In this document: positions 3-17,124 of the stretch, in pieces
Layout: the number at the start of each line of letters is the position of its first letter
Numbering within the stretch: position 1 is the stretch's first letter
From: a virus
IMG/VR virus record: IMGVR_UViG_3300005265_000001
Span: 32,001-96,000 of that record
Direction: 5' to 3' (one strand)
Length of the DNA stretch: 64,000 nt
The notes under the pieces: model-generated
The model's input: only the letters and a program-made list of their open reading frames with translations
Databases searched by the model: none
What the model was told of the DNA's origin: nothing
Made by a program: the position numbers and the translations under genes

Positions 3-158
3 GAAGTTTTTAATAAAATACTCAAATTGGAATTGGAATCAGTAAAAAATGGAAACAAAATTGATGATAGTTTTCAACAGGTTCCAAAAATGGTTTACAA
101 TAGAGACTATAATGGTTTGAAAGATTTTTATGGGAAAAAAGTAAAGGAATATAGATAA
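3..158 (+). CDS. 3' end of a small helical protein, partial; putative paralog of ORFs 1110 and 5353
   Basis: Manual translation EVFNKILKLELESVKNGNKIDDSFQQVPKMVYNRDYNGLKDFYGKKVKEYR*, stop 2 nt before the ATG at 161; weak similarity to the small ORFs ahead of the other JAB genes. Confidence 0.5.
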   Translation, partial: EVFNKILKLELESVKNGNKIDDSFQQVPKMVYNRDYNGLKDFYGKKVKEYR

Positions 159-160: not shown

Positions 161-1108
161 ATGCAAGGGATTGTGTTGAAGGGTCCGCATAAATATTTGC
201 GAAAATATAAAGGTAAGAATGGGAAGTGGGTTTACATTTATAAGGAAAAAAGGGGCAAATCTCATTCAAAAACTCCAAAAACATTATTTTCAGATGTTCC
301 GAATCTTGAGTTTGAAGCCAATTCACACCGATTTAATCCATTTGAAACTTTAATTTTATTTGATGAAAAAGGAAATGTTATTCATAGGGAGAAAGGAAAT
401 TCTGAACGGGTATCAATAGAAAAAATAAGAGATAAACTTGATAATGCACCTATAACTTTTCATAATCACCCTTTGGTAGATGCGTCGTTTTCTCCTAATG
501 ACGTTGGTGTGGCTATGAATCATAGAACAAAAAGAATGGTTGTAGCGTCACCTAATTATAATTATGAAATGACTTTTGATTGGGATAAAATTTATAAACA
601 TTATGGCGGCTATAAAAAGTTTTCAAAGGAAATCAATAAATATTATGCCCATTACGCAACAATTATAAAATTAGAAATGGAATCTGAAATACAACATGGC
701 AGTAAAATAACAGATAAAGAAATTGATAGAAGATTTTTTAGTGGGGTTTGGAGAAGTGTAGCAAGAGAGATTGTGGGAATGGAATATAAACAAGAAAAGA
801 TAAAATTTGATATGGAAACACCCTATGATAATAAGAAGTTTAAAACAAATGTTAAGACTATAAATCCAGACGATTTATCCAAAGAATTTAAAAAATCAAA
901 ATATGTCAAAAATGTTAGAATATTTCCAATGAATAAAATGTATGCTTTTAGCATAATAATGAAAAATGGAATGGTTTTGAATATGACTATTGATAAAAGC
1001 AAACCGCTTACTGAGGCCGTTTGGGGTTCAAAGGGTATATATGGGAAAATGAAAGAAGATGTTCAACGCATTTATTACAAATTCATAAAGGCAAAAGAGG
1101 TAAAATAA
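161..1108 (+). CDS. Leader-tagged JAB/MPN (JAMM-motif) protein 1
   Basis: N-terminal HKYLRKYKGKNGKWVYIYKE; ETLILFD...HNHPLVDASFSPND matches E...HxH-x7-S-x2-D. Confidence 0.75.
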   Translation: MQGIVLKGPHKYLRKYKGKNGKWVYIYKEKRGKSHSKTPKTLFSDVPNLEFEANSHRFNPFETLILFDEKGNVIHREKGNSERVSIEKIRDKLDNAPITFHNHPLVDASFSPNDVGVAMNHRTKRMVVASPNYNYEMTFDWDKIYKHYGGYKKFSKEINKYYAHYATIIKLEMESEIQHGSKITDKEIDRRFFSGVWRSVAREIVGMEYKQEKIKFDMETPYDNKKFKTNVKTINPDDLSKEFKKSKYVKNVRIFPMNKMYAFSIIMKNGMVLNMTIDKSKPLTEAVWGSKGIYGKMKEDVQRIYYKFIKAKEVK

Positions 1109-1109
1109 A

Positions 1110-1274
1110 ATGGATAAAAAGGAAATTGAAAGACTTTTTAATTTACAGTTTAAAGCGGCTATGGAAGTAAAAGATAAAATTGATGATAAAATTCACTTAG
1201 ATTTTTCACGGGCAATGGTAAGGGGGGATCAAGAAAAAATAAAAGAGTTGGAAAAAGAATTTTCAAAAAAATAA
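1110..1274 (+). CDS. Small 54-aa helical protein, candidate partner or immunity protein
   Basis: Manual ORF MDKKEIERLFNLQFKAAMEVKDKIDDKIHLDFSRAMVRGDQEKIKELEKEFSKK with GAGG RBS; fills the gap between JAB genes. Confidence 0.7.
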   Translation: MDKKEIERLFNLQFKAAMEVKDKIDDKIHLDFSRAMVRGDQEKIKELEKEFSKK

Positions 1275-1287
1275 TTGGGGCAATAAA

Positions 1288-1932
1288 GTGAAATCGGAAC
1301 GGGCAAATCACAAATATTTACGAAAATATAGAGGCAAGAATGGGAAATGGGTTTACATTTATAAGGAAGGAAAAAAGAAAAGTGGTGATACACCTGAAAT
1401 TAATGCCTTACCCAAAATTGTAAAAGCTGATATGAATAGAATCAGAAATCATAAATATGAAATCGGCATTTTTTATAATAAATACAATGAAAAAATAGAT
1501 GAGATGACAGATGATGAACCCGATACACTTGAATATGATGACGATGATATCAAATACATAAGAGGTCAAAAACCTACAATTTTTATCCACAACCACCCCA
1601 ATTCGGCGTCATTTTCAATTAATGATATTGCAACGGCCTCCATTTTTAAAGTTCCAAAAATAATAGCAACATCTAAAAAAGCTGATTATTTAATGGTATT
1701 TAAGAAATCATTTATGAACAAATCTATTAAAACGAGAGAAAAAATAGTTAATAAATTGGCTAATCATTACATATTACTTAATGAAATGACAGTTGGAAAA
1801 TTCTTGGATGCTATTGATGCGGGTAAAATGACAGTGGAAGAAGCTGATTTTATCCATTTTCATAATCTAATTGAAAATCTTGTTAAGACATTTCCAGAAG
1901 TTTTTGAAAAATACGAAAGAAAATTAAAATAA
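1288..1932 (+). CDS. Leader-tagged JAB/MPN protein 2
   Basis: Leader HKYLRKYRGKNGKWVYIYKE; YEIGIFY...HNHPNSASFSIND. Confidence 0.75.
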   Translation: MKSERANHKYLRKYRGKNGKWVYIYKEGKKKSGDTPEINALPKIVKADMNRIRNHKYEIGIFYNKYNEKIDEMTDDEPDTLEYDDDDIKYIRGQKPTIFIHNHPNSASFSINDIATASIFKVPKIIATSKKADYLMVFKKSFMNKSIKTREKIVNKLANHYILLNEMTVGKFLDAIDAGKMTVEEADFIHFHNLIENLVKTFPEVFEKYERKLK

Positions 1933-1937
1933 AATAG

Positions 1938-1966
1938 TTGACTTTTTTCCCTTTTACTGTTATAAT
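1938..1966 (+). promoter_or_regulatory. Sigma70-type promoter
   Basis: TTGACT-17 bp-TATAAT with extended -10 TG, upstream of ORF 1993. Confidence 0.8.
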
Positions 1967-1992
1967 GTTTGTGAATTTAACAGAAGGGGGAA

Positions 1993-2721
1993 ATGATGGC
2001 GATTCATGTAACTATTAGTGATAAAGATGGAAAAAAGGTGGTTACTTTTGAACCATTTCAAATGCCCAAAATTAAGGTTGGAGAAAAAGTTGTATTTAAA
2101 ACTGGTGAAAGCAGAAAATATGGTGTTATTGCGAAAGTAAAAAACAATGCTATGTTTCATTATATTGAATGTGTAATGTTTGACACTTTTGTTAGGTCGG
2201 ATGTGGCAAATTCAATTAATTGGGATAGGGTTGCCGCAAAAATCTATAAGGTTAGAGGTGGAAAATCTTTTGAGGTTCCAACAATTAAAACCAAAGCAAT
2301 TGTTTTTGAATTTTCAAATGATAGTAAAAATTTTGGTTGGTTTGCCTTTCCAGAGTCTATGACTGAATATATTGATGAAAAAAATTATAAAGAAGTGGTG
2401 GCGGAAATTAATAGGGTAAGAAAAGAAATTGATACTCAAAAAGCAAAAGAAATTATTAAACTGAGAATGGGTGAATTTGATGCTTGTATTATTGATGAAT
2501 TTAATAAACCACCATTCAATCATGGGTTCCCGTGGGATGAATACAAGGCCGTTTTTCTCAAAATGACTTCTTGTCGGAATACAACGGTTGTGGTTTTCAA
2601 AGATAAAGATGTTCTGAATGTTCCCCAAAAAATTGCGGGTATTGTAATTGGGAAAGGGGGCAGAACTATTAAAGAAATACAAAAAGTTCTGGAACACAAA
2701 GTTTCAGTTAATGTTATTTAG
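1993..2721 (+). CDS. Protein with C-terminal KH RNA-binding domain
   Basis: VPQKIAGIVIGKGGRTIKEIQKVL, the KH GxxG motif. Confidence 0.7.
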   Translation: MMAIHVTISDKDGKKVVTFEPFQMPKIKVGEKVVFKTGESRKYGVIAKVKNNAMFHYIECVMFDTFVRSDVANSINWDRVAAKIYKVRGGKSFEVPTIKTKAIVFEFSNDSKNFGWFAFPESMTEYIDEKNYKEVVAEINRVRKEIDTQKAKEIIKLRMGEFDACIIDEFNKPPFNHGFPWDEYKAVFLKMTSCRNTTVVVFKDKDVLNVPQKIAGIVIGKGGRTIKEIQKVLEHKVSVNVI

Positions 2722-2803
2722 GAATATATTATTGTGAAAAAGGAAATTTTATACAAGGATTGTAATAAAAATATGCCGGCGTTTTTATGTGGATGGTTAA
2801 AAT

Positions 2804-3067
2804 ATGAATAAATATGGAGAAAAGAAGGAAAAGTTTGAATGGTTTTTAGCATGTTCAATAAGGCAGGCTAAAATTTATTGTAAATTAAACAAAATTCCAT
2901 TCAATCCCAATAAAATTATAACAAAATTTCAGGATGTGTTGGGTTTGTATGGAATAATTGTTAGAGCAATTGGAGAATGGTATAAAAATGATGATTTAGA
3001 TAAAATAATAGAATATATGAATAATCATAATATTGTATTGGTAACGGCAATTCAACAACTTGATTAA
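2804..3067 (+). CDS. Hypothetical protein
   Basis: ORF track, same strand as neighbours. Confidence 0.55.
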   Translation: MNKYGEKKEKFEWFLACSIRQAKIYCKLNKIPFNPNKIITKFQDVLGLYGIIVRAIGEWYKNDDLDKIIEYMNNHNIVLVTAIQQLD

Positions 3068-3080
3068 AAGTGAGAGGAAA

Positions 3081-3233
3081 ATGAAAAAAATTGTAATTGA
3101 TTTTAGTGAAGATATTGAAAATTCTGATTGGCTTTATATTAGTAGATTAAAACGAAAAGCCAAACAGGGAGATAAAGAGGCTGAAAATGAATTAAAAAAA
3201 CTTGGAATTAAAATGGAGGAAGAAAATGATTAA
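3081..3233 (+). CDS. Small 50-aa protein
   Basis: Manual ORF MKKIVIDFSEDIENSDWLYISRLKRKAKQGDKEAENELKKLGIKMEEEND with GAGG RBS. Confidence 0.6.
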   Translation: MKKIVIDFSEDIENSDWLYISRLKRKAKQGDKEAENELKKLGIKMEEEND

Positions 3234-3513
3234 TTTGGATGCTTTTGATGATGAAATGAAAGAAAAAATGCAGAAAAAAAATGTTGATTTTATAATGGAG
3301 GTTGAAAGAATAATTAAAAAGTATAATTTGGATGAGGAAAAAGTTGCAACCATGATGAATTTTATGATGGGGGCGTCAGTTGCCACGATGTCAAAAGAAC
3401 AATTGAGAGTTGTAAAAGTTACAGTATGGTTGTTAATGAAATCATATTTGGGAATTGATATTGAAGAGTGGGGGAAAAACAATCTTATAGAAAAGGAAAC
3501 TTTTATAAATTGA
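3226..3513 (+). CDS. Hypothetical protein upstream of the ART gene
   Basis: ATG 3226 preceded by GGAGG; overlaps both neighbours. Confidence 0.6.
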   Translation: MINLDAFDDEMKEKMQKKNVDFIMEVERIIKKYNLDEEKVATMMNFMMGASVATMSKEQLRVVKVTVWLLMKSYLGIDIEEWGKNNLIEKETFIN

Positions 3514-4397
3514 AATTTGTGATATTGGTAAAATCGGAACAGACAAATCATAAATACCTAAGAAAATATAAAGGTAAGAATGGGAAATGGGTTTACATTT
3601 ATAAGGAAAGTAGCGTCAAAAAAGGAAAAGATGAGTTAGATATTCAGATTAAACCCCAATATAAAGCACAATATCAAAAATATTATAATCAATATGCTGA
3701 AATGTTTTCAAAAATTCCAGAAAAAGATGTCAAAGGATTTAAAAATTCCATAAACGGTTGGATGAATATGTTGGGAAATGATAAAACAATTCCACGGGGG
3801 TTTAAAGAAAATCCAGTTGGAAAAATTATCATAAACACAACAAATGAAAATAAAGATGTTAAAGATTTATTGATGATGTGGTGTCATTCTACATATAGTT
3901 GGGGTGGACATGATTTTAGAAAAGCAATTTATGAAATCGAAGATAATGTAGCTGAAAGAAAGAAAATAAAGAAAGAAAAAGATGATTATCACAATCCAAA
4001 AAATCTTGAAATAGTTTTGAAATTGAGGGCATTTGGGCAAGCATATTTTGACGTTATTAAAAATGATGTAAAAGAAATTCAATTATATAGAGCTATTGGG
4101 GGGGATACGGGAAAACAAATATTAAAAGGATTACAAGAAAACGCTGAAATTTCCTATCGTGATTTACCAATGTCTTCATGGACAATAAAAAGGAAAGAAT
4201 CAATTTTTAGAGGAATTGGTGATATAGCAATTAAACACACCTTTTCAACTAAAGACATATTTTTACCACGTGAAATTTTGTATTCAGTTTTTGATAATGG
4301 TGAATTTGCAGATGAACATGAATATATGGTAGTTGGGCGGAATGAAGAAAAACCGATAAATAAAAATGATGTGGTTTTTGTTGAAAGAGGTTATTAA
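3510..4397 (+). CDS. Leader-tagged ADP-ribosyltransferase, R-S-E class
   Basis: Leader present; LYRAI / MSSWT / DEHEY match the R, S and ExE motifs; likely TTG start in a TTGA overlap (ORF track starts at 3468). Confidence 0.7.
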   Translation: MKFVILVKSEQTNHKYLRKYKGKNGKWVYIYKESSVKKGKDELDIQIKPQYKAQYQKYYNQYAEMFSKIPEKDVKGFKNSINGWMNMLGNDKTIPRGFKENPVGKIIINTTNENKDVKDLLMMWCHSTYSWGGHDFRKAIYEIEDNVAERKKIKKEKDDYHNPKNLEIVLKLRAFGQAYFDVIKNDVKEIQLYRAIGGDTGKQILKGLQENAEISYRDLPMSSWTIKRKESIFRGIGDIAIKHTFSTKDIFLPREILYSVFDNGEFADEHEYMVVGRNEEKPINKNDVVFVERGY

Positions 4398-5212
4398 TGA
4401 ATAGAAATCACAAATACCTAAGAAAATATAGAGGCAAGGGGGGGAAGTGGATTTATATTTATAAGGAATCTACATTATCTCATGATCCTGGTTGGAAAAA
4501 AGATTTTCCAAAAGTTTTGAGTAATACAACTGTAAAATATTTAAAATCCAGAAAAGATTATGATAAGGCCAAAAAAGGTCTTGATGTTAAAGCGGCTGTA
4601 AATGTTATAAATGAAGTGGTGAATGAAAAAAAGATAAAACAAACTTTATCAAAATATAATCCAAAAGATACAATTGTTTGCGCTGTTCATGCAATTGAAG
4701 TTCAGGGTCATAATTATTTACCTACGGCGTATGCGGCTAAAATATCGAATTTAATGGGGTTCAAACTTGATGATAATATTGTTCAAGCTAATGTGGTTGG
4801 TAGAACAAAGAAAAATGCTTATGAAAGATTAGTAGCCAAACCAAAATTTTCAGGTAATGTTATCAAAGGTAAAAAATATATTTTAGTTGATGATGTTATA
4901 GGTCAAGGGGGAACAATAAATGAATTGAGAAAATATATAGAAAAACGTGGTGGTGAAGTAGTTCATGTTTCCAGTTTGGCGGTTGGGATTTTTGCCGCAA
5001 CTTTGCCAATTTCAGATAAAACTAAAGGTGAATTGATTAAAAAATATGGTAAAAAAGGATTGAGTGAATTTCTGAAAAAATATAATATAACTGATAATAT
5101 AGATTCAATGACTGAAAAAGATGGCCGGTTATTGCTTAATAATAAATCAATGACAATCGAAAAACTTTCAAAAAAACTTGACGAAATAGTTGACAAATTA
5201 AAAAAGGGATGA
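4397..5212 (+). CDS. Leader-tagged type I phosphoribosyltransferase-fold protein
   Basis: Leader present; PRPP-binding motif YILVDDVIGQGGT. Confidence 0.8.
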   Translation: MNRNHKYLRKYRGKGGKWIYIYKESTLSHDPGWKKDFPKVLSNTTVKYLKSRKDYDKAKKGLDVKAAVNVINEVVNEKKIKQTLSKYNPKDTIVCAVHAIEVQGHNYLPTAYAAKISNLMGFKLDDNIVQANVVGRTKKNAYERLVAKPKFSGNVIKGKKYILVDDVIGQGGTINELRKYIEKRGGEVVHVSSLAVGIFAATLPISDKTKGELIKKYGKKGLSEFLKKYNITDNIDSMTEKDGRLLLNNKSMTIEKLSKKLDEIVDKLKKG

Positions 5213-5218
5213 TATAAT
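5190..5218 (+). promoter_or_regulatory. Perfect sigma70 promoter overlapping the PRTase 3' end
   Basis: TTGACA(5190)-17 bp-TATAAT(5213) with extended -10 TG; GGAGG follows at 5225. Confidence 0.8.
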
Positions 5219-5237
5219 GATGGCGGAGGTGAATGGT

Positions 5238-5369
5238 GTGAAAAATCTTAAAAATGACGAAATTGCAAAATTGCAAAATGAAAAAAATCTTTTGCAAAAA
5301 ATCTTTTTGCAATTATTTGAACACCCCCAAAAAATGAATGAGGATAGTAAAAATGAGAAAAAAAATTGA
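5238..5369 (+). CDS. Small 43-aa protein
   Basis: GTG start after GGAGGTG; MKNLKNDEIAKLQNEKNLLQKIFLQLFEHPQKMNEDSKNEKKN. Confidence 0.45.
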   Translation: MKNLKNDEIAKLQNEKNLLQKIFLQLFEHPQKMNEDSKNEKKN

Positions 5370-5520
5370 TAAATTATTTGATGATGTAATGAGACTTATT
5401 GTGGAGAAGGCGGATAAATTACCTCTTGATAAATATTCAGTAGATGTAATTGAATCCGTGTATAGAGAAGATGCAAAACAGTTACAAAAAATAAAGAGAG
5501 AATTGGAAAAAATTGAATGA
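5353..5520 (+). CDS. Small 55-aa helical protein, putative paralog of ORF 1110
   Basis: MRKKIDKLFDDVMRLIVEKADKLPLDKYSVDVIESVYREDAKQLQKIKRELEKIE; ATGA overlap with JAB3. Confidence 0.65.
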   Translation: MRKKIDKLFDDVMRLIVEKADKLPLDKYSVDVIESVYREDAKQLQKIKRELEKIE

Positions 5521-6140
5521 AAGAGCGGACAACCCATAAATATTTACGAAAATACAAAGGTAAGAATGGGAAATGGGTTTACATTTATAAGGAAACAAGT
5601 TTAAAAGATTCCAAAAATTCTTTATTTGAATTTGAATCTATTGGAAAAATTGCCAATAAAATAAGAAATCAAAAATACGAAACCTTTGTGTTGTTTGACA
5701 ATAAAGGAAATGTTGTATTTCAAAAAGATGGTGGTGAAGATTACGTTAAATTGGACGGCTATTCTTTAAAAAAAGCCATTAAACGAAATAAAACAACTAT
5801 TCACAATCATCCCAAAGGTAGTTCATTTTCTTGGGAAGATATTAATATTGTTTTAAATGCGGGCCACGAATCAATGTATGTTTGCTCGAAAAAATATGAT
5901 TATAAAATTGAATTTGATTATGAAAAAATAAATGAAAAATATGGAGATATTGAAAGATTCAGAAAAGAATTGGCAAATGAAAATTTAAGAGCAAATGTAG
6001 AAGTGCGAAATAAACTTGAAGATATGATAGATGACGGAAAAATAACACCACAAGAAGCAGAAATATTACATGAAAATTTGGTTTGGAATAAAATTCAGGA
6101 TAGAATGGTAGGTATAAAATATATAAGGCGAGAGATATAA
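5517..6140 (+). CDS. Leader-tagged JAB/MPN protein 3
   Basis: Leader; YETFVLFDNKGN...HNHPKGSSFSWED. Confidence 0.75.
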   Translation: MKERTTHKYLRKYKGKNGKWVYIYKETSLKDSKNSLFEFESIGKIANKIRNQKYETFVLFDNKGNVVFQKDGGEDYVKLDGYSLKKAIKRNKTTIHNHPKGSSFSWEDINIVLNAGHESMYVCSKKYDYKIEFDYEKINEKYGDIERFRKELANENLRANVEVRNKLEDMIDDGKITPQEAEILHENLVWNKIQDRMVGIKYIRREI

Positions 6141-6145
6141 ACAAA

Positions 6146-7291
6146 ATGAAAAAAAGAACAAATCATAAATATCTTAGAAAATATAGAGGCAAGGGTGGGA
6201 AGTGGATTTATATTTATAAGGAAGGAAAAAAGAAAGATAGGACTGTAAAGGTAAAATTAACAAAATATCAACAATTAGCTATTGATAGAGTTAATGAAAA
6301 TTCTCCCGAATTGACACTTGAAAATGTCAGGAAATTATTTTATAAATATTTTATAAAAAACAAAAGAATGGCAGATTATCTTAAAAATTATAAGAAAGAA
6401 CATGGTAAAGATTTGATTACAACTAAAGATTTCTATAAATTGGGCAAATTTTTCCAAAAAAATATAGGAACAGATATTTTACCTGTTTACATTTTGAGAA
6501 AATTTAAACGGGGGGATTTAGAAAAAAGTTCATCTTATAAAGATTTGGTAAAAACAAAAAGAATGAAAAATCAATTAGAATTGGGTAAAGCCGCAACATC
6601 CAATGGATCATTGATTCCCGCACCTGGGGATTTGAGGGATTATTGGGAACGTAGGTCTTTTTATGGTGCATTTCAGGAAAATCCAGAATATAAAAAATTA
6701 TTAAAAAGAGAATCAGAATATTTTACTAAAAAATTAGGAAGAGAGCGTCCTATTTATGGGTATATGTCTCTTCATAATTCTTCAATGGATTTTAGAACAC
6801 AATCACAATATGGATTTTTCAAATTTAGAGTGAAACCTGAAATTGTTGAAAAATATGTTACATTTACTCCAAACAATAGCAGTGATTCAGATGAATTAAA
6901 TAGAACATTTACAAAAAAGAATCCGTATTACTTGCTTGAATACATAATGGATAGTATATCAAATAGGAAAACTAAAATTGGTATAATGGAAAAGGATATA
7001 GAAATTATAAAAAACATAATAAAAACGGGTAAAATAGATGCCCCAAAAGAAACTTTTGATAATTTAGCAACATTTTTTAGAAGATATGTTGAATCACAAT
7101 TAATTGGAGATGCAACACTTGATAAATTTGAATATGTTGCCATTGAAGATTGGAAAAATAATGAAAATCTTAAAAGATATTATGGGTCTGATTATATTGA
7201 TAAAGAAATGCAACGATTTTCTCCGAAAATATTAAAACAAATTGCAAAAGAATTGGGTATTCCAGTTAAAATAGAGGGGGGCAATAAATGA
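6146..7291 (+). CDS. Leader-tagged DUF3626-like protein (possible ART-like fold)
   Basis: Leader; TSNGSL, ERPIYGY, QYG, VTFTPNNS and YVESQLIG motifs resemble DUF3626 as recalled. Confidence 0.55.
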   Translation: MKKRTNHKYLRKYRGKGGKWIYIYKEGKKKDRTVKVKLTKYQQLAIDRVNENSPELTLENVRKLFYKYFIKNKRMADYLKNYKKEHGKDLITTKDFYKLGKFFQKNIGTDILPVYILRKFKRGDLEKSSSYKDLVKTKRMKNQLELGKAATSNGSLIPAPGDLRDYWERRSFYGAFQENPEYKKLLKRESEYFTKKLGRERPIYGYMSLHNSSMDFRTQSQYGFFKFRVKPEIVEKYVTFTPNNSSDSDELNRTFTKKNPYYLLEYIMDSISNRKTKIGIMEKDIEIIKNIIKTGKIDAPKETFDNLATFFRRYVESQLIGDATLDKFEYVAIEDWKNNENLKRYYGSDYIDKEMQRFSPKILKQIAKELGIPVKIEGGNK

Positions 7292-7584
7292 AAGTTTTAA
7301 GTATTGACAAACATGAAAATGAATATAGGGTTTATATAGAAAAAAATGGCAAATATTATTTATATTCTATTACTCCAAAAAAACAAACCGAAATAGTAGA
7401 TTATCCCGATATCAAAAATTATGGGCATTTTGTAAATGTTATTTGGAAATTTGACAATTTTGTGTGGTTTACTAAAGAACCTTATGAAATTTCAAAATTG
7501 GATTATGATACAATTCAGAAAGTTCATTCATATTGGAGCAAAAAATATTGGAATGGAAAAGATGGACCTGAATGGGTAGAATAA
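7288..7584 (+). CDS. Hypothetical protein translationally coupled to the DUF3626-like gene
   Basis: ATGA overlap, GAGGGGG RBS. Confidence 0.65.
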   Translation: MKVLSIDKHENEYRVYIEKNGKYYLYSITPKKQTEIVDYPDIKNYGHFVNVIWKFDNFVWFTKEPYEISKLDYDTIQKVHSYWSKKYWNGKDGPEWVE

Positions 7585-7585
7585 G

Positions 7586-7614
7586 TTGACTTTTGCTTGA
7601 AATGGTGATATAAT
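7586..7614 (+). promoter_or_regulatory. Sigma70-type promoter
   Basis: TTGACT-17 bp-TATAAT with extended -10 TG; GGAGG RBS before 7640. Confidence 0.8.
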
Positions 7615-7639
7615 GGTTAAAATTTAATGGAGGAAAATA

Positions 7640-8158
7640 ATGATTATTGAAAGACAAGAAAAAGGGATTGTTCTAAAAAAAGAAGAAGAAAATTCCATTT
7701 CTGATTTTATCGAAAGTCCTGATTTAATCTCAAACTATTTAGAATTTTATTTTTCCAAACAAGACGGTTGGAGTTATCTTTATGATATTCAAAAAAATTG
7801 TGTTTATTGGTTGACTGATTATGGTTTTAGTGCCATAGATGAATTTTTGAATTGTGATAAAGTATTTCTTCCAAAACACCCAAACGATAATACATATAAA
7901 GGATATGAATGGAATGAAGGCCGGCCGTCATGGATACGGTATGAAGTTTTTTTGAGAACTGGTTATTATTTAAAAAAATACAAAGACAGGGATAGGGCAT
8001 TTAAAGAAACTTTGGAATCAATGAAAGAATTGATTGAGGCGAAAGATATTGAAAAAACTGAAATAATGAAAGCATTTAATTTAACATATATGTGGGAGGA
8101 ACCTAACAAAAGACAACAAATGGTAATTGGTATTTTGAAAATTTTATTGGGAGAATAA
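7640..8158 (+). CDS. Hypothetical protein, likely early
   Basis: ORF track, promoter and RBS. Confidence 0.7.
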   Translation: MIIERQEKGIVLKKEEENSISDFIESPDLISNYLEFYFSKQDGWSYLYDIQKNCVYWLTDYGFSAIDEFLNCDKVFLPKHPNDNTYKGYEWNEGRPSWIRYEVFLRTGYYLKKYKDRDRAFKETLESMKELIEAKDIEKTEIMKAFNLTYMWEEPNKRQQMVIGILKILLGE

Positions 8159-8161
8159 AAG

Positions 8162-8419
8162 ATGGATATATGTGGCGTTAAGATTCCACTTTGGAAATAT
8201 ATTGCTTTTAAAATGTGGGAATGGAAACATTGTTGGAGATACATAAATATAGAATACCAAGGCAAAATATATAATTGCAGATGTTGTGATTATTGTTGTG
8301 ATTTACAAATTAAAAATAGCAATGGAAAATGGAAAAAATTCAGGGGCGAAATAGCCGATAATATTTTAAAAACTTTGAAAGAAAAGCATAGAAGAATTAC
8401 AAATATTAAAATAAATTAA
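8162..8419 (+). CDS. Cys-rich hypothetical protein
   Basis: CRCCDYCC cluster. Confidence 0.55.
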   Translation: MDICGVKIPLWKYIAFKMWEWKHCWRYINIEYQGKIYNCRCCDYCCDLQIKNSNGKWKKFRGEIADNILKTLKEKHRRITNIKIN

Positions 8420-8431
8420 AGGAGTATTAAA

Positions 8432-8581
8432 ATGAGAGAATGGGGAACAGATGAATGGGAAAAAATGTATGAAGAAAAAGAACCCCCCAAAAAATCCAAG
8501 AAAGAACCAACTCGTGAAGAAATTGAAAGGGAATATGAGACGGTTGATTATATGTGGCGAAAATATTTGGTTGATGATTAA
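8432..8581 (+). CDS. Small 49-aa protein
   Basis: AGGAG RBS; MREWGTDEWEKMYEEKEPPKK... Confidence 0.55.
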   Translation: MREWGTDEWEKMYEEKEPPKKSKKEPTREEIEREYETVDYMWRKYLVDD

Positions 8582-8587
8582 TTTTGA

Positions 8588-8598
8588 TTTATATTATT
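8588..8598 (+). promoter_or_regulatory. Candidate phage late-promoter motif TTTATATTATT
   Basis: Recurs about 30 nt upstream of the starts at 8627, 13283, 53267 and 59884. Confidence 0.5.
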
Positions 8599-8626
8599 AA
8601 CTAAAATATAAGAGGTGTAAGGTCTT

Positions 8627-8941
8627 ATGAAAGAAATAAAAGATGCCAGAAACGTTAAATCCTTTATAAATCTTGACAAAATTGCGCTAATTTACAAAGA
8701 AATGACGTTTTACGTCATTATTGCCAATGATGGAAGCGAATTGAAGGTAAATGACAAATATTTTTCAGAAATTTTCAAAGAAATAAAAAATAGAATGATT
8801 AGAATCAATGGGAAATATTCAACAGAAATGTGGGTGGACCCAAAATTTATTTCAATGTATCGAGAATACCCAAACGGGGATGCTGAAATTTATCTATCGG
8901 GGCAACAGTTTTTTGCAATTTCTCCAATTGAGTTAAAATAA
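8627..8941 (+). CDS. Hypothetical protein
   Basis: ORF track, GAGGT RBS. Confidence 0.65.
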   Translation: MKEIKDARNVKSFINLDKIALIYKEMTFYVIIANDGSELKVNDKYFSEIFKEIKNRMIRINGKYSTEMWVDPKFISMYREYPNGDAEIYLSGQQFFAISPIELK

Positions 8942-8942
8942 T

Positions 8943-9164
8943 ATGGCTATTCAAATAGAAAATTCAGTTGTAACATTAGAACATTTAAATTATTCAGATG
9001 ATATTACAATATCCAATTCAATTGCGGATATAAATAATTCAAATTGTAGTGGTCATGTGACTATAAGTGCCTCATTGGTTAATATAAACCTATCAACTAT
9101 AAATGCTGAATTATTGAATGTTTCAAATAACAGTGTTGTTAATGCTAATATAACAAATTTATAG
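8943..9164 (+). CDS. Small N/S/I-rich beta-helix-like protein
   Basis: Composition resembles the C-terminus of ORF 22896 and the N-terminus of ORF 11916. Confidence 0.5.
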   Translation: MAIQIENSVVTLEHLNYSDDITISNSIADINNSNCSGHVTISASLVNINLSTINAELLNVSNNSVVNANITNL

Positions 9165-9167
9165 AAA

Positions 9168-10103
9168 ATGAAAGAAAATACTGATTTTGATGGATTGACA
9201 TTTTGTGACACTTCCGGTGGTAGTGTTGATGGTGGTAGTGTAATAAACCTAAATTCGTGTGTTATAAATCATGATTTGGCTGTGGTTGGATCAACTATTA
9301 GAGTAAATTCTACAAGCGGCGGTGGGGAAGTTCAATTAACAGGAAATTCAACCGCTTGGGTTAATACAACAACGCTTGGAAAATTGAAAATTTCTAATAA
9401 TGATGGGTCAAATGCAATTATTTCAAATGTAAAAAATGGCAATTTTCAGGTTAATTTACAAGATGCTTGTAATGGTGTTACAGATGTGGATCAAAATTCA
9501 GGTGATTTTAGGATTGCCTCTAAAAATTTTGATAATAGATTGATTGAAAAACTTCAAACAATTTCAGATATTTTACAACATTGTTACAATACTGATAATT
9601 CCGGGCCATGTTCAAATTGTGGGTCTCCCGCTTCTGGTGGAAGTATGGCGTTCGGTGGTGGTGAGACATTAGAACCCGAAGAAATCGGATTACCAGAACC
9701 AGGTCCAGGAAATTCACCCTTTTATAAATTTTCTAATTCAACTTGGACAGTTTCAAATGATTTGCCAGAATATATTTTATGTGCTCATGGAATAACTTGT
9801 AATGAAAAAGGATATATTTGTGGTGATATTTATAATTTTGAATATGTTTCAAATACATTTACTCAAAAATCATGGCCGGACACGTCATATAATTTTTCTA
9901 TTTCATCATTAAATAACAAAATTTACTATAATCATGGAAGATGGGATGCTCAAACTCCCCCTCATGATGATGGAAATAGAGAATACAACCCTCAAACAGA
10001 TACTTTCACAACTGATATGGACGGTTATCTTTCAGAAGGAAATGGTGCTTTTGTTGTAAATGAGAAAATTCATGTATTTGGTGGGGGCATAGTGCCCTAT
10101 TAA
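9168..10103 (+). CDS. Beta-helix + HC..CxxC motif + partial Kelch protein
   Basis: Paralogous to 11916 (SVINLNSC.INH; SDILQHCYNTD..G.C..CGS); few Kelch-like blades. Confidence 0.6.
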   Translation: MKENTDFDGLTFCDTSGGSVDGGSVINLNSCVINHDLAVVGSTIRVNSTSGGGEVQLTGNSTAWVNTTTLGKLKISNNDGSNAIISNVKNGNFQVNLQDACNGVTDVDQNSGDFRIASKNFDNRLIEKLQTISDILQHCYNTDNSGPCSNCGSPASGGSMAFGGGETLEPEEIGLPEPGPGNSPFYKFSNSTWTVSNDLPEYILCAHGITCNEKGYICGDIYNFEYVSNTFTQKSWPDTSYNFSISSLNNKIYYNHGRWDAQTPPHDDGNREYNPQTDTFTTDMDGYLSEGNGAFVVNEKIHVFGGGIVPY

Positions 10104-10116
10104 AGGAAAAGCAAAA

Positions 10117-10602
10117 ATGAAAAGTAATGATTTTGATGGACTAACATTTTCCAATGGGGCGGCTGGATGCGGATATAATTTAGCACGAAGAGAAGACACA
10201 AGTCATTATGAATATATTCCTTTCGTTTCAAAAACAACGAAAACTGATATGCCCTATGCCGTTTATTTTCACGCTTATACAGATTTAAATAATAAAGGAT
10301 ATTCTTTGTGTGGAAAAGATGATTATGATGATTATGCCACAACTGGATATGTTTTTGAATATTTACCCGATACTTGGGTATCTAAAACAGATTATTCACA
10401 TAATTTGTCCCAAATGGGCGCCACAATAGTCAATAATAAAGTCTATGCGTTAGGGGGATATGAAGTTTATGATGATGAATTTGGATATATGCAATATGCG
10501 TCTGTGAGTTGGGTTAATTATTTAGAAAATGACACTTGGACGACAGATGAGCAAATGCCCGATTCAGTAAATCACATGGGGGCATTTAATAATGTTTCTT
10601 AA
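10117..10602 (+). CDS. Short Kelch-repeat protein
   Basis: NKGYSLCG, DTWVSKTD, NNKVYALGG. Confidence 0.65.
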   Translation: MKSNDFDGLTFSNGAAGCGYNLARREDTSHYEYIPFVSKTTKTDMPYAVYFHAYTDLNNKGYSLCGKDDYDDYATTGYVFEYLPDTWVSKTDYSHNLSQMGATIVNNKVYALGGYEVYDDEFGYMQYASVSWVNYLENDTWTTDEQMPDSVNHMGAFNNVS

Positions 10603-11481
10603 ATGAAATTTTTTCATGTTTCTCCAATAAAACCACAAGGTATTTTCAATTCAGTTAAAACACTATCGAATTATACAAAACAACCATTATATTTAATCAA
10701 TTTTCCTCTACATATCCCCAAAAATATTCCGATTCATTTAAATGTTCCGTGGTCTTTTTCTAAGGTTTATCCATATTTGGTTAATACCTTATCTATTTTT
10801 ACAATTCATCATTCGAGTAATTTAATTGGTATCAAAAGTTTTGAAAATGTTTTTTATGTTGTATTGACAAAATGGTTGTATAATAATTTGGTTGATAATT
10901 TGGAAAATGTTGTTTATATTCCTAATGGAATAGATTTGAATTTTTTCAAACCAAACAAATCATTTTTAGAATCCGAAAAGTTTACAATTCTAATAAATGC
11001 CAAGAATTTCAATATGTTGTATAATATTTTAGATAAGTTGAATGAAAATGATATTAGAGTAATGATATATGGAAATCATAAGAAAATAGAAAAATCATTT
11101 AATTTTGAAATAATAGATTGGGGTTGGGTGGAAAATAAAGTTTTGCTATTACATATTTTGAACGGTGTAGATGTTTTTATTCCTTTGTTTGGAAAATCAA
11201 TGTTACCTAATGTTATTTTAGAAAATATGGCTTGTCAGAATGTTCCAATTGTTTTAGATTATTATGGTGTAGATGAAATAATACGTAATAAAATTAATGG
11301 TTATGTTGTTAATAACATAGATGAGTTAATTGAACAAATTTTTGTTTTGAAAGATAACAAAAAGATTTTGAGAAAAATAGGTATAAATGCAAGGACTAAT
11401 GTTGATAAGTATTTTAATCCAATCATTCAAGCTAACAAATTTTTGAATTTTTATGACTCCATTTCCAAATACCATATATAA
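10603..11481 (+). CDS. GT4-like (GT-B fold) glycosyltransferase
   Basis: YIPNGIDLNFFKP; LPNVILENMAC..PIV; EII.NKINGYVV. Confidence 0.75.
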   Translation: MKFFHVSPIKPQGIFNSVKTLSNYTKQPLYLINFPLHIPKNIPIHLNVPWSFSKVYPYLVNTLSIFTIHHSSNLIGIKSFENVFYVVLTKWLYNNLVDNLENVVYIPNGIDLNFFKPNKSFLESEKFTILINAKNFNMLYNILDKLNENDIRVMIYGNHKKIEKSFNFEIIDWGWVENKVLLLHILNGVDVFIPLFGKSMLPNVILENMACQNVPIVLDYYGVDEIIRNKINGYVVNNIDELIEQIFVLKDNKKILRKIGINARTNVDKYFNPIIQANKFLNFYDSISKYHI

Positions 11482-11962
11482 AAATGCTGAAAATTTACAA
11501 CATATTCCTTTTGAATGTTTAATGCTATTTGATAAGCACGGCAATTTATCAGTTTTTTATACGTCTTTTTCAAAAACCAAAGTAAAATTAAAGAAAAAAG
11601 AAATCAAATATCCAATTGAATCTCGCCATTTTTCTATTCATAATCATTTGAAAGATAATTCCTTTTCTCTTGTGGATATTATTACAATTATGAATTTATT
11701 GATAAAATGGTCAATAGTTGTAACACCTAATAGATGGTTTTGCCTGGAATTGGATGTGAAAAATTTACTTTTATTGAATAGATGGGAAGAAATGCAAAAA
11801 ATTAAAATGGAATGGAATCAATTGAAACGATATACCCATACAACAAACCATTATAAAATGAAAGAAATAACAAAAAAGTATCCAAACATATTTAATAGTT
11901 ATATTATTTTACACAATGGAAAATTCAGTAATAAATCTAAATTCATGCTCAATAAACCATAA
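11453..11962 (+). CDS. Leaderless JAB/MPN protein 4
   Basis: FECLMLFDKHGN...HNHLKDNSFSLVD, homologous to JAB1 and JAB3. Confidence 0.65.
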   Translation: MTPFPNTIYKNAENLQHIPFECLMLFDKHGNLSVFYTSFSKTKVKLKKKEIKYPIESRHFSIHNHLKDNSFSLVDIITIMNLLIKWSIVVTPNRWFCLELDVKNLLLLNRWEEMQKIKMEWNQLKRYTHTTNHYKMKEITKKYPNIFNSYIILHNGKFSNKSKFMLNKP

Positions 11963-13205
11963 AATTGAAGTATCAAATTCCACTTTAGAAATTAACTCAA
12001 GCAATGCTCAAAATGTTGATTTGAAGAATGGAAGTGCGGGTAAAATTAGTTCAAGTGATTTGTCTGAATTAAATATTGAAACGGATAATAATTCAACCGC
12101 AATAGTTTCAACTGTAAAATCAAGCAATTTTAATGTAAAAGCTAAAGATGGATGTAATATAAATGAAGTTCAGCAAAATAGCGGAGATGTTAAGTTTTTT
12201 TCAAAAAATTATGATGAGAGATTAATAGAAAAATTTCAATCACTTTCAGATATTTTACAACATTGTTATAATACTGATGTTTCTGGAATTTGTGGTGTCT
12301 GTGGAAGTGGTGGACCTTCGCATGTTCCAAAAGGTTATATTTTTGGGGGATTTAGTGGGTCTGATGGACAACCAAGTTATTCAATTATGGATGATATTGA
12401 TGAATATGATGAAAATGGTGATTTGTGGTCGTCTAAAAGCAATTTATTATCTCCCGCAAGGGATTATACGTCGGCTTTTTATATTTCCACAAAAGGGTAT
12501 ATAGTTGGGGGAAGGGGTGGATATCATACTTTGGATGATACCATTGAATATACACCCGAAATTGATAGTTGTATTTTACGTGGAAATATGGTTCATGATA
12601 GACAAGATGGCACGGCGTTTTCTATAAATAATAAAGGTTATTATAGTGGCGGATTTGGAAGTGATAGTTCCAATCAATCAAATACAAATTTTGAATATGA
12701 TGTAGCCGGGGATAGTTGGGTTACAAAACACACAATTCCCTATCCCGCAAGAAGGGAATTAAGGTCTTCTACTATAAATAATAAAGGATATTTGTTTTCT
12801 GGTTTTAATATGAGTCTTCATTATCTAAGAGATACAGAAGAGTATAATCCTTTGAATGATACATGGGTATCAAAAACAGATCATAATAGTCCAGGACGGG
12901 GACTAAATGCGGCGTCTCCATTTGATAATAAAAGTTATATAATAGGTGGGGATACTGGTAGTTCTTATATAAATGATGTTGATGAATATGAACCTGGTGG
13001 TGATACATGGGTATCAAAAACTAATTATCCTACAATTATAGGAAGACAAGTTAGTAATAATTTATCAAATGGTATATGTGTCTTTGGAGGAGAAAATTCA
13101 TCTACAATTGTTCGAGATGTATATGAATTTAATAACAATTCATGGACTTCAAAAGCAAGTTTACCATCGCCTTCAAGAGCAAATGCGTCAGGAACACCAA
13201 TTTAA
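11916..13205 (+). CDS. Beta-helix + HC..CxxC + Kelch beta-propeller protein, putative virion appendage
   Basis: About six repeats of KGY..GG...EY....D.W.SK....P.R. Confidence 0.75.
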   Translation: MENSVINLNSCSINHKIEVSNSTLEINSSNAQNVDLKNGSAGKISSSDLSELNIETDNNSTAIVSTVKSSNFNVKAKDGCNINEVQQNSGDVKFFSKNYDERLIEKFQSLSDILQHCYNTDVSGICGVCGSGGPSHVPKGYIFGGFSGSDGQPSYSIMDDIDEYDENGDLWSSKSNLLSPARDYTSAFYISTKGYIVGGRGGYHTLDDTIEYTPEIDSCILRGNMVHDRQDGTAFSINNKGYYSGGFGSDSSNQSNTNFEYDVAGDSWVTKHTIPYPARRELRSSTINNKGYLFSGFNMSLHYLRDTEEYNPLNDTWVSKTDHNSPGRGLNAASPFDNKSYIIGGDTGSSYINDVDEYEPGGDTWVSKTNYPTIIGRQVSNNLSNGICVFGGENSSTIVRDVYEFNNNSWTSKASLPSPSRANASGTPI

Positions 13206-13242
13206 TTTTTATATTATTTTTAAAAAATTGGGGAATAAAGTT

Positions 13243-13253
13243 TTTATATTATT
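13243..13253 (+). promoter_or_regulatory. Candidate late-promoter motif upstream of the sheath (second copy at 13208-13218)
   Basis: TTTATATTATT about 30 nt before the ATG. Confidence 0.5.
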
Positions 13254-13282: not shown

Positions 13283-15658
13283 ATGGGTAGTTATGTATCA
13301 CCGGGTGGTTACGTTAGAGAAATAGATTGGAGTCTATATGCACGGTCTTTATCTTCAACTTCGGTTGGATTTATTGGTGCATTTGATAAGGGGCCAATAA
13401 ATGAGGCAACTTTAATTACTAATGTGGATGAATTAGTAAATGTTTTTGGCACACCAAATTTAAATACTTATGCGTGGGATGCCATAAAGCAATATTTAAG
13501 AAGTGGTAGAAGGGCTTGGGTTGTAAGAGTAGCGGATGATGATGCGGCAAAAGCAAAAATTGATGTAAATTCTGAAAATCAATATGGATTTATTTTGTCG
13601 TCAAATAAAAATTTGTTTACTTTTGATCCACCTTATGCTGGAACACTAAAAGGAAGTGAGGTTGAAACATATATTATAAATTCTTATGATGCCTTAAAAT
13701 TTAAGGTTGATGGGAGTGATATAGTTGCTGTTAATTTAACTTCTGGAATTAAAAGCGCACAAGCAATTGTAAATGAAATCAATTCACAAACAACTGGAAT
13801 TACGGCGGTTTATAATAATGGGTATGTTTGGGTTAAATCAAACACAATTGGAAGTTCATCTTCAATTGAGGCAATGGCGGTTGATTGTGTGAGACTTGAT
13901 GTTGAAAGTGTTTCAGGGGATTTTACAATTGGAGAAACAATTACAGGCGGAACGTCTGGGGCAACAGGGGTTTTATATGCCACAGATAATTCAACTTATA
14001 TGGATTTACATAGTGTAACAGGAACATTTTCGCCTTCCGAAACGGTTACAGGTGGAACATCTTCTGAAACGGCTGATATTACGGCGGCGGGTGTTCATGA
14101 AAGAACAGATGCAAATTCAACATTGGGATTTACAACAGGAACAGTTTACACTGGAAGTGACGGAAATAATACATTAAATGTTTCAATTGATGGCGGTGGG
14201 ACACAAACATTTAAAATGATTCCCGATACGGCAAATGAAACAATTTCCAAAACGGCACAACAAGTTGTAAATACTATCAATGCGTCAATTTCAGGCGGAA
14301 AGGCATATAAAACTTATGATGGAAGTGTCAAAATAGTCACAGATACGATTGGAAGTTCAGGTTCGGTTCAAGTTTTGTCTTCTTCAACGGCTGATACTGT
14401 TTTGGGATTTGATAATAATGTTCATTCTGGAAACGATTCAGCGGCTAAATGCTTTTCAGTGGAAGCTATTAATGAAGGTGTTTGGGGGAACAAAATATCT
14501 TTAATGATATCAACTGGAACAAGAACAAATACTTTTAGATTGGCCGTGATTTATGATTCAAAAACAGTTGAAGTTTTTAATAATCTTTCAAAGGTTCAAA
14601 CTTCAAGTGACTATTTTGTTAATAAAATCAATGGAGTATCAAGATATATTACAGTCACAGATAATACAGTTGAAACAAATATGCCGGCATTTGATACTTA
14701 TACTTTGGTTGGTGGAAATTCAGGAATTTCTTCTTTGAATGATGCTGATTATATAGGTATTAATACAGGGTCCACAAAAACAGGATTACAAATTTTTAGA
14801 AATGCGGAAAAATTGCAAATTAATTTACTTGCAATTCCTGGTATTTCAAGTGCGGCTGTAATTTCTGAAATGTTATCTTTGTGTGAGGATAGAGCCGATT
14901 GTATGGCAGTGGTTGATCCACCAAGGGGCTTGACACCACAAACAGTAGTTGATTGGCATAATGGAGAAGGAATTTGGTCTGGAAGTCATACGGCTTTTAA
15001 TTCAAGTTATGGGGCTTTATATTGGCCTTGGGTTAAAGTTTATGACAGTTATAATGAAATTGAAAAATGGGTTCCACCTTCAGGGTTTGCCTTGGATAGA
15101 ATGGCATATACTGATAAAATTGCGGAAGAGTGGTATGCACCTGCTGGATTTACACGTGGACGTTTAACAAATGTTCTTGGATTGGAATATGATACGTCAC
15201 AAGGTGACAGGGATTATATGTATTCCGATGGAAATGCTGTCAATCCAATTGTTGACTTTACACAAGAAGGTGTTGTAATTTGGGGTCAAAGAACACTTCA
15301 AAGAAAACCAACGGCACTTGATAGAGTTAATGTTAGACGGTTGTTACTTTATATTAGAAAAGTTGTAGCAACTACTACAAAATATTTCGTCTTTGAACCT
15401 AATGATAAATTATCATGGGCAAGATTACGAAATGCCCTTATTCCATATTTTGATTGGTTGTATGATCCTGAAACTGGTAGAGCATTGTATTATTACAAAA
15501 TTCAATGCGATAAAACAACCAACACAGATTTGGATATTAACAATGGAGTAATGAGGGTTAAAATCTTCTTACAACCGGTCAAAGCGGCTGAAATTATTGT
15601 ATCAGATTTGATTCTGTTACCAACAGGCGTGACTGCGGAAGATTATGTTATTTCATAA
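13283..15658 (+). CDS. Contractile tail sheath protein, T4 gp18-like
   Basis: YVSPGGYVREID, YWPW, WYAPAGFTRG, IWGQRTLQ...LDRVNVRRLL. Confidence 0.95.
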   Translation: MGSYVSPGGYVREIDWSLYARSLSSTSVGFIGAFDKGPINEATLITNVDELVNVFGTPNLNTYAWDAIKQYLRSGRRAWVVRVADDDAAKAKIDVNSENQYGFILSSNKNLFTFDPPYAGTLKGSEVETYIINSYDALKFKVDGSDIVAVNLTSGIKSAQAIVNEINSQTTGITAVYNNGYVWVKSNTIGSSSSIEAMAVDCVRLDVESVSGDFTIGETITGGTSGATGVLYATDNSTYMDLHSVTGTFSPSETVTGGTSSETADITAAGVHERTDANSTLGFTTGTVYTGSDGNNTLNVSIDGGGTQTFKMIPDTANETISKTAQQVVNTINASISGGKAYKTYDGSVKIVTDTIGSSGSVQVLSSSTADTVLGFDNNVHSGNDSAAKCFSVEAINEGVWGNKISLMISTGTRTNTFRLAVIYDSKTVEVFNNLSKVQTSSDYFVNKINGVSRYITVTDNTVETNMPAFDTYTLVGGNSGISSLNDADYIGINTGSTKTGLQIFRNAEKLQINLLAIPGISSAAVISEMLSLCEDRADCMAVVDPPRGLTPQTVVDWHNGEGIWSGSHTAFNSSYGALYWPWVKVYDSYNEIEKWVPPSGFALDRMAYTDKIAEEWYAPAGFTRGRLTNVLGLEYDTSQGDRDYMYSDGNAVNPIVDFTQEGVVIWGQRTLQRKPTALDRVNVRRLLLYIRKVVATTTKYFVFEPNDKLSWARLRNALIPYFDWLYDPETGRALYYYKIQCDKTTNTDLDINNGVMRVKIFLQPVKAAEIIVSDLILLPTGVTAEDYVIS

Positions 15659-16967: not shown

Positions 16968-17124
16968 TTTAGCCGAAATACTTTCAATTCAATATTATTT
17001 ATCAAAATTCCTTCACCTTTCTATTAGTGAACAGGATATTTTAAATGTTTCAGAATTTCAATTCTTTTGGGAAAAGTTGAAAGAAGAAAATGAACAACAG
17101 GAATATGTAGAAGATGGCTACTAA
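16927..17124 (+). CDS. Small tail assembly chaperone, gp51-like or frameshift extension
   Basis: Overlaps the chaperone in the +1 frame, directly before the tape measure. Confidence 0.55.
   Translation: MNTFFVQELFGNPNLAEILSIQYYLSKFLHLSISEQDILNVSEFQFFWEKLKEENEQQEYVEDGY

Follow-up and report, generated by a model that had tools for sequence, protein, structure and literature searches.

Four diverged JAB paralogs of an uncultured myovirus belong to a domain family typically carried as cargo by phage capsid proteins

Why would a single phage carry four genes for JAB/JAMM proteins, and what might these proteins do? The question is raised by a 64,000-nucleotide (nt) stretch of viral DNA (hereafter, the window), which covers bases 32001-96000 of one linear 105,897-bp IMG/VR virus record (IMGVR_UViG_3300005265_000001) from an uncultured myovirus. 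The four open reading frames (ORFs) are named by the window position at which they start, i.e., ORF161, ORF1288, ORF5517 and ORF11453. An earlier note, made from the sequence alone, had proposed that they might counter anti-phage defences that act through ubiquitin-like (Ubl) modification. The explanation that we favour, and to which we give an even chance, is that the four JABs are diversified hydrolase effectors that are either delivered by the virion or act early in infection.

Four JAB genes in one phage

The four JAB ORFs listed in the earlier note are all real open frames at the stated positions, on the + strand. Their organization is as follows (aa, amino acids):

161-1108, + strand: JAB paralog 1, 315 aa; HKY leader, JAB core at about residues 46-221 and a C-terminal extra of ~95 aa without an assigned fold; E 1.6e-71 to the paralog profile.
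1288-1932, + strand: JAB paralog 2, 214 aa, GTG start; HKY leader and JAB core; the nearest outside relative is P0002.
5517-6140, + strand: JAB paralog 3, 207 aa; HKY leader (predicted beta hairpin, residues 9-24), JAB core, C-terminal helical hairpin and closing strand.
11453-11962, + strand: JAB paralog 4, 169 aa; no leader; HNHL and not HNHP; overlaps the end of a group-1 glycosyltransferase (GT1) gene and the start of a Kelch fibre gene.

The E...HxH...S..D motif is intact in all four proteins, in which residues E62, H101-N-H103, S109-F-S111 and D114 (ORF161 numbering) are invariant. Seven residues separate HxH from SxxD in ORF161 (HxH-x7-SxxD), and six do so in ORFs 1288, 5517 and 11453. 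The RadC-type HNHP signature, to which the earlier note had drawn attention, is found in three copies, ORF11453 being the exception. Pairwise alignments, which give 23-37% identity, confirm that the four ORFs are paralogs. Their assignment to the JAB/JAMM group also stands, as evidenced by the conserved motif and by the JAB/MPN proteins that are the top structural matches of the predicted models. A six-frame hidden Markov model (HMM) scan of the 105.9-kb contig retrieved exactly these four copies.

The paralogs are as distant from one another as they are from outsiders. For instance, ORF5517 is 42% identical to P0002 and 36% identical to ORF161. In a phylogeny of 159 domain copies, 77 of 156 branches are open, and the four paralogs are not grouped. 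An approximately unbiased (AU) test with 43 rows did not reject monophyly of the four (p 0.667); constraining the tree to it improved the fit by 16 log-likelihood (lnL) units. An old duplication within the lineage and separate capture are both possible as the origin of the paralogs.

The JAB domain as cargo of capsid proteins

A profile of the four JAB domains was searched against 1.84 billion proteins. At E<=1e-3 it matched 1,592 cluster representatives, of which 144 also passed E<=1e-10; their hallmark is HNHPxxxSFSxxD. Because so many representatives carry the same core, and JAB/MPN proteins are the top structural matches, the likeness among the four ORFs is not due to chance. The catalytic residues E/HNH/SFS/D are invariant or at least 90% conserved in alignments of 77 and 59 members, and the Asn of HNH is invariant in the 136 members aligned.

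The best 150 matches include 76 solo proteins (<=275 aa), 39 proteins of 401-600 aa that carry the domain at the C terminus, and 11 proteins longer than 1,000 aa. Among the mid-size members (n=59), 31 feature a Phage_Mu_F domain and two a Phage_min_cap2 domain, while a portal domain, an XkdF protease and a 2H phosphoesterase occur once each. Giant polyvalent members hold 2-4 JAB copies in tandem. P0007 combines MuF, a DRAT-type ADP-ribosyltransferase (ART) and four JAB copies, and P0009 combines minor capsid protein 2, an ADP-ribosyl exotoxin domain and two JAB copies. Among structural neighbours in the ESM Atlas, the fusion partners are MuF, min_cap2, Phage_portal_3 and VG15; this resource has no names for the nearest feature clusters, of which the largest has 2,535 members. 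The best BFVD matches of ORF5517 are uncharacterised phage proteins and 'minor capsid proteins' of 550-630 aa; RadC-labelled phage proteins rank lower. In an IMG/VR relative (L005), the JAB domain ends a 476-aa MuF-like protein. A locus search with the 4-sequence alignment returned two distant loci only, and a tblastn search of 50,697 GenBank phages with ORF5517 gave no match.

This JAB branch is large, phage-specific in its contexts and uncatalogued in Pfam, NCBIfam and PHROGs. The strongest clue to its role is the company that it usually keeps, namely MuF, minor-capsid or portal proteins, at whose C termini the domain is carried as cargo. These carriers (MuF, the SPP1-gp7-like minor capsid protein 2 and the portal protein) reside within the capsid, at the portal. 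MuF polymorphic toxins and phage-type polyvalent proteins are believed to be packaged in the head and to be injected together with the DNA (Jamet 2017, PMC5576092; Iyer 2017, PMC5512222; Zhang 2012, PMC3482391). The JAB family resembles these systems in being MuF C-terminal cargo in more than half of its mid-size homologs and in co-occurring with ART toxins, 2H phosphoesterase and portal domains. Moreover, the genes that share a leader with the JABs in the window, including a phosphoribosyltransferase (PRTase), encode typical polyvalent-protein domains. In contrast, the four JABs have no MuF domain, and each effector is encoded by a small gene of its own, with a 20-residue leader. The three papers do not name this JAB cargo domain.

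A 20-residue leader common to unrelated genes

The leader, the consensus of which is HKYLRKY(K/R)GK(N/G)GKW(V/I)YIYKE, heads JABs 161, 1288 and 5517 as well as three other proteins encoded in the window:

188-247, + strand: 20-codon leader HKYLRKYKGKNGKWVYIYKE of ORF161; the same leader occurs at 1309-1368, 3549-3608, 4409-4468, 5535-5594 and 6164-6223.
3468-4397, + strand: leader-tagged protein without a family match (P0004); the true start is probably near 3510.
4397-5212, + strand: leader-tagged phosphoribosyltransferase (Pfam PF00156, E 8.6e-7; phrog_22413, E 2.2e-40).
6146-7291, + strand: leader-tagged DUF3626 protein (Pfam PF12294, E 4.5e-11).

Looser versions of the leader are found on six further genes just upstream of the window, giving a total of 12 tagged genes (genome 22448-39291). 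The tagged proteins are small and otherwise unrelated. Pairwise codon differences among the six copies in the window comprise 70 synonymous and 25 non-synonymous changes, and these copies are 88% identical at the DNA level within the leader and 34% over the following 60 nt. The excess of synonymous changes and the drop in identity indicate that the leader peptide is kept by selection, and not merely by recent recombination.

The leader is basic, rich in Lys, Arg and Tyr, and forms a beta hairpin in the ORF5517 model (strands 9-14 and 20-24). Variants also head solo JABs from elsewhere, such as HKYIRK... in P0002 and P0011, and (A/S)KYIKRWKGKDGKW.YEY in P0014, P0071, P0073, P0099 and P0145; P0143, another solo JAB, also has a leader variant at its head. 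A search across IMG/VR with a degenerate DNA pattern for the exact leader found no other contig. We infer, as the simplest reading, that the leader fills here the job of MuF and sends diverse enzymes to the same place.

In phage T4, the internal proteins and Alt are unrelated enzymes that have a common short N-terminal capsid-targeting address and are loaded into the head for injection. The array described here may be analogous. The leader differs from the T4 capsid-targeting sequence in being longer, predicted to form a beta hairpin and unrelated in sequence.

Two further observations concern the leader. Some solo and giant family members (P0080, P0086, P0102 and P0104) carry, at the start or inside the protein, a (D/N)QPRD..GRWT motif in place of the HKY/KYIKR leader, perhaps as a further short address or linker used by phage cargo proteins. 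In addition, a tagged 203-aa protein encoded outside the window (L001:8448-9059) has a start that resembles the JAB start over 23 residues (pairwise E 7e-4) and is devoid of the catalytic Glu and of HNH. By its sequence, it may be a degenerate relative of the JABs. It was not retained as a fifth JAB, since the similarity spans just 23 residues and the tag-free HMM does not detect it.

Fold and place in the JAB clan

None of the four proteins matches a Pfam, NCBIfam or PHROGs model. PADLOC models, those of Cap3 and other defence-system JABs included, gave no match to the four JABs at E<=10, and hmmsearch of PDB sequences with the paralog and family profiles gave no hit at the same threshold. 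The fold was predicted with AlphaFold2 for ORF5517 (predicted local distance difference test, pLDDT, 90.2; predicted template-modelling score, pTM, 0.81; 77-sequence alignment) and for ORF11453, the most divergent copy (pLDDT 87.8). The best PDB rows obtained for ORF5517 with Foldseek are RadC 2QLC, PfJAMM1 5LD9, Cap3 9ILD, Rpn11, AMSH and CSN5 (probabilities 0.9-1.0, E ~3e-3). With VIA-align, the best 50 rows for the same protein are all JAB/MPN, including PfJAMM1 (Z 7.4; root-mean-square deviation, rmsd, 3.5 over 108 residues), Cap3 (Z 7.1) and RadC (Z 6.1; rmsd 3.2 over 96 residues). ORF11453 was compared in an unbiased manner with 48,161 PDB chains. JAB/MPN proteins fill the first 14 places, ahead of cytidine deaminases of the same fold class; Z values are 7.8 for PfJAMM1, 7.3 for Cap3, 6.7 for the bacterial Ubl-deubiquitinase 8TYY, 6.5 for AfJAMM and 6.4 for RadC. 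Z values are middling; because structural matches are unanimous and the metal-binding residues are conserved, membership of the JAB superfamily is secure as judged from the predicted models. Model comparisons do not separate the JAB clades, as Cap3, Ubl-deubiquitinase, PfJAMM1 and RadC appear tied within about 1 Z unit.

The hhalign comparison of the family alignment with E. coli YicR, a single sequence as target, gave 80% probability (E 1.4e-5) over just 52 columns ending in HNHP...S..D, with the family HNHP aligned to AHNHPSG of YicR. Lambda K, which has an HSHP core and is a prokaryotic JAB of the DUB type, reached 3.5% probability in the same comparison. The only recurrent Pfam families among the 77 small family members (E<=1) are RadC, with 11 matches, and Prok-JAB, with 6, and the Pfam RadC cut-off of 22.1 bits is passed by relatives P0007 (28.8) and P0008 (23.5). 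The sequence evidence leans towards the four JABs being a distinct branch of the JAB clan that is nearest to RadC, lies outside the curated RadC family and is not recognisably related to Cap3 or Bil proteins.

Similarities to RadC-like JABs (PF04002; YicR; PDB 2QLC) include the E...HNHP...S..D motif with Asn between the His residues, structural Z values of 6.1-6.4 and the fact that RadC is the commonest weak Pfam match in the family. In contrast, the four JABs score below the Pfam and NCBIfam RadC models, feature SFSxxD where RadC has PSxxD, and add a ~60-residue helical hairpin and a closing strand. Moreover, the family is fused to capsid proteins and not to HhH, ArdC-N or helicase domains. 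Cap3, the isopeptidase of the type II antiphage signalling system based on cyclic oligonucleotides (CBASS; PDB 9ILD, Z 7.1-7.3), and the Bil-type deubiquitinase (PDB 8TYY; 8TYY_B, Z 6.7) share with the four JABs the fold and the five catalytic or metal-binding residues. They differ in having an HS/THP core, where the phage family has HNHP, and are not matched at the level of sequence models. The JAB genes described here are phage-encoded and mostly leader-tagged (three of four), and have no Cap2 E1/E2, CD-NTase or Ubl neighbours.

Proposed role and expression signals

In the explanation that we favour, the short basic leader would replace MuF as the carrier for three of the JABs. The tagged JABs would belong to a set of effector enzymes that enter the virion and leave it together with the DNA, or would at the least do their work as infection begins. 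Each JAB would hydrolyse a host target by metal-dependent chemistry, the substrate being either an isopeptide or peptide bond, as for every characterised JAB, or a nucleic acid or nucleotide, as proposed for RadC. The diverged copies may represent diversification against variable host targets or inhibitors, and the leaderless JAB would be expressed with the fibre genes and act inside the infected cell. The locus is attractive for experiments, as its four JAB genes are small and stand alone, and the 20-residue leader, present on three of them and absent from the fourth, is separable; it opens two questions to test: what RadC-like JABs hydrolyse, and whether a short leader can stand in for MuF as a capsid-cargo address. 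If a Ubl conjugate turned out to be the substrate, it would be the first case of a phage countering defence of that class.

A different use of peptidase chemistry would be virion maturation, in which the JABs remove the common leader or cut cargo or polyproteins during head assembly. Such chemistry is the sole activity shown for the JAB fold, and the tandem JABs reside within giant polyvalent proteins that are thought to be processed (PMC5512222). However, the processing of polyvalent proteins is ascribed to zincin-like peptidases in the same paper, one protease would suffice, four diverged copies are hard to explain, and three of the copies bear the leader themselves. We regard this role as extremely improbable.

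Expression signals were searched on the contig. Promoter calls are consensus matches only. Sigma-70-like sites of the form TTGAC(A/T)-17-TG-n-TATAAT (at least 11/12 match) number 12 on the + strand, compared with 5.2 +/- 2.0 in shuffles. The five TG-bearing sites (GTTGACTTTTT...TGnTATAAT) fall without exception within or beside gaps between genes of the non-structural half, three of them in the window and two at genome positions 10776 and 17910; weaker sites are seen in other gaps of the contig. The window sites are:

5190-5218, + strand: perfect sigma-70-type promoter-like site (TTGACA-17-TATAAT with TG, 12/12), ahead of the run 5217-7584 that holds JAB 5517.
1938-1966 and 7586-7614, + strand: near-perfect sigma-70-type sites.

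A second element, TTATATTATT, has 16 copies on the + strand and two on the - strand (expected, 2.3 +/- 1.5 from shuffles), placed 17-40 nt before gene starts. In the window it is found at 8589-8598, 11899-11908, 13209-13218 and 13244-13253. Two copies precede the tail sheath gene, and one each precedes two runs of tagged genes. JAB161 and JAB1288 are in a gapless run behind this motif, and JAB11453 is in a run opened by a copy before ORF 8627. TTATATTATT is a candidate for a phage-specific, perhaps late, promoter element. Judged from these sequence signals, the expression clues are mixed, pointing partly to co-expression with virion genes and partly to early expression.

Several observations weigh against delivery by the virion. 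The position of JAB5517 behind a perfect sigma-70-type site would fit early expression by the host RNA polymerase better than late synthesis. The leader is missing from one of the four JABs, ORF11453. The array of JAB and tagged genes lies between replication genes and tail genes, outside any head module; PHROG matches, which are those of a myovirus, include the tail sheath (13283-15658), the tape measure (at 17114) and baseplate wedge proteins (from 24872), and a UvsX-like recombinase, an exonuclease, SbcCD and a primase-like gene are found before the window. Finally, a search of the contig for MuF, portal, capsid (Gp23) and T4-type prohead protease genes found none, which says little for a fragment that is ~58% complete according to CheckV.

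These observations bear on the main alternative, that the JABs are early intracellular host-takeover enzymes, unpackaged and transcribed by the host RNA polymerase, with the leader serving as a localisation, nucleic-acid-binding or partner-binding module. The perfect and near-perfect extended -10 promoters at 1938, 5190 and 7586 cluster in the non-structural half, the array adjoins replication and recombination genes, and Lys, Arg and Tyr abound in the leader as they do in nucleic-acid-binding hairpins. However, capsid-internal carriers are overwhelmingly the fusion partners of the domain family elsewhere, two runs of tagged genes (JAB161 and JAB1288 included) lie behind the motif that also precedes the tail-sheath gene, and the promoters are known as consensus matches only. 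On balance we consider this alternative doubtful.

The leaderless copy and Ubl-based defences

ORF11453 cannot carry the leader, because an in-frame stop is present at 11444, 9 nt upstream of the ORF. The earlier note had located this copy within the tail-appendage block, and it does lie among fibre genes, adjoining the tail module. Its immediate neighbours are:

10603-11481, + strand: group-1 glycosyltransferase (GT1), immediately upstream of and overlapping the leaderless JAB; Pfam PF13692, E 5.1e-11.
11916-13205, + strand: Kelch-propeller virion or fibre protein, immediately downstream of JAB 11453; Pfam Kelch, E 1.3e-18; phrog_16120, E 3.6e-17.

The TTATATTATT copy at 11899-11908 lies inside the 3' end of the JAB 11453 gene, ahead of the Kelch gene at 11916. 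A role for ORF11453 as a tail-assembly JAB similar to lambda K was rejected, as the protein plainly belongs to the cargo family and its alignment with lambda K is confined to the HxHP motif. The Kelch-type genes 9168-10103, 10117-10602 and 11916-13205 have N-terminal phrases in common (DFDGLTF; INLNSC.INH), and the first two resemble partial propellers. The GT1 gene and the leaderless JAB form an insertion-like pair between Kelch genes, in a stretch of lower G+C (27%).

The setting of this copy is relevant to the idea that the JABs are Ubl-deconjugating isopeptidases, which would oppose either the Cap2-mediated priming of CD-NTases in type II CBASS or the Bil conjugation to fibres, with the leaderless copy cleaning fibres during assembly. 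All biochemically characterised JABs are (iso)peptidases, the catalytic Glu, two His, Ser and Asp residues are intact, and PfJAMM1 with SAMP2 (Z 7.4-7.8), Cap3 with CD-NTase and the Ubl-deubiquitinase are among the best matches by structure. However, Z values of 6-8 do not separate JAB clades, and sequence profiles lean towards RadC, with the invariant Asn in HNHP and the low score of lambda K. No PADLOC defence-system model matches the four proteins, no Ubl, E1 or E2 gene is found nearby, the neighbours being tagged effectors, GT1 and Kelch proteins, and we found no paper on phage JABs that oppose CBASS or Bil. RadC-like and toxin JABs have also been argued to be without the tunnel for the Ubl tail (Zhang et al., PMC3482391; Iyer et al., PMC5512222). 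The idea has no specific support, and we consider it improbable. A bolder form, in which a whole battery of isopeptidases would erase host ubiquitin-like marks, the tagged copies being delivered with the DNA to disarm Cap2-primed CD-NTases or similar targets and the leaderless copy stripping Bil adducts from fibres, seems quite improbable. If it were true, the JAB family found as MuF cargo, which comprises at least 1,592 sequence clusters, would be a class of counter-defence proteins with a wide distribution.

Small ORFs next to the JAB genes

Small ORFs are found next to three of the JAB genes:

1110-1274, + strand: small Lys/Glu-rich ORF, 54 aa, between JAB 161 and JAB 1288.
5338-5520, + strand: similar small ORF, before JAB 5517.
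-39..158, + strand: similar small ORF, before JAB 161.

The three range from 54 to 65 aa. ORFs 1110 and 5338 are 27% identical over 52 aa, and ORF -39..158 is weakly similar. The prediction of a complex between JAB5517 and the upstream 60-aa ORF scored 0.00, which is no verdict and constitutes evidence neither way.

Small partners of this type might form toxin/immunity-like pairs with the JABs, as in MuF polymorphic toxins, the neighbour protein restraining the JAB in competition between bacteria or phages. Tox-JAB-1 and Tox-JAB-2 (DUF4329) are a precedent, being divergent JABs that act as delivered effectors, are accompanied by small immunity proteins and are predicted not to act on Ubl substrates (PMC3482391). 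They are delivered by RHS proteins and by the type VI (T6SS) and type VII (T7SS) secretion systems, not by phages. In contrast, Pfam scans with PF14220 (DUF4329) gave no match for the four JAB proteins or for the family members; the DUF4329 feature score in the ESM Atlas is 0.77. The pairing is further weakened by the low similarity of the small ORFs, which could reflect low-complexity composition, and by ORF11453, which has no small-ORF neighbour. Moreover, the phage looks like a large lytic-type myovirus, whereas MuF toxins have been described in temperate phages (PMC5576092). We therefore give little credence to a toxin/immunity arrangement.

Other features of the contig

The contig has a G+C content of ~29%, and nearly all of its genes are on the + strand. 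The full genome of the phage is roughly 180 kb long, and a 172-kb contig on record also encodes the ORF5517 protein.

A 693-aa protein (L001:11913-13994; genome 25913-27994) without a PHROG, Pfam or PDB match directly precedes a run of tagged genes. A 626-aa protein (L005:4005-5885) encoded upstream of the MuF-JAB gene on an unrelated IMG/VR contig matches it at 25% identity (E 9e-16), which marks the 693-aa protein as a conserved neighbour; by eye, its C-terminal part resembles TerD-type domains. Several gaps in the left half of the contig (L001:15032-15529; genome 10638, 12293, 17933, 19758 and 24696) look tRNA-like by eye, with GGTTCGA.TCC arms, and one ORF in these gaps shows a HicA-like tail, again by eye. 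Within the effector array, a 242-aa protein (1993-2721) encoded just behind a near-perfect sigma-70-type promoter-like site features a C-terminal KH RNA-binding domain (Pfam KH_1, E 1.4e-6).

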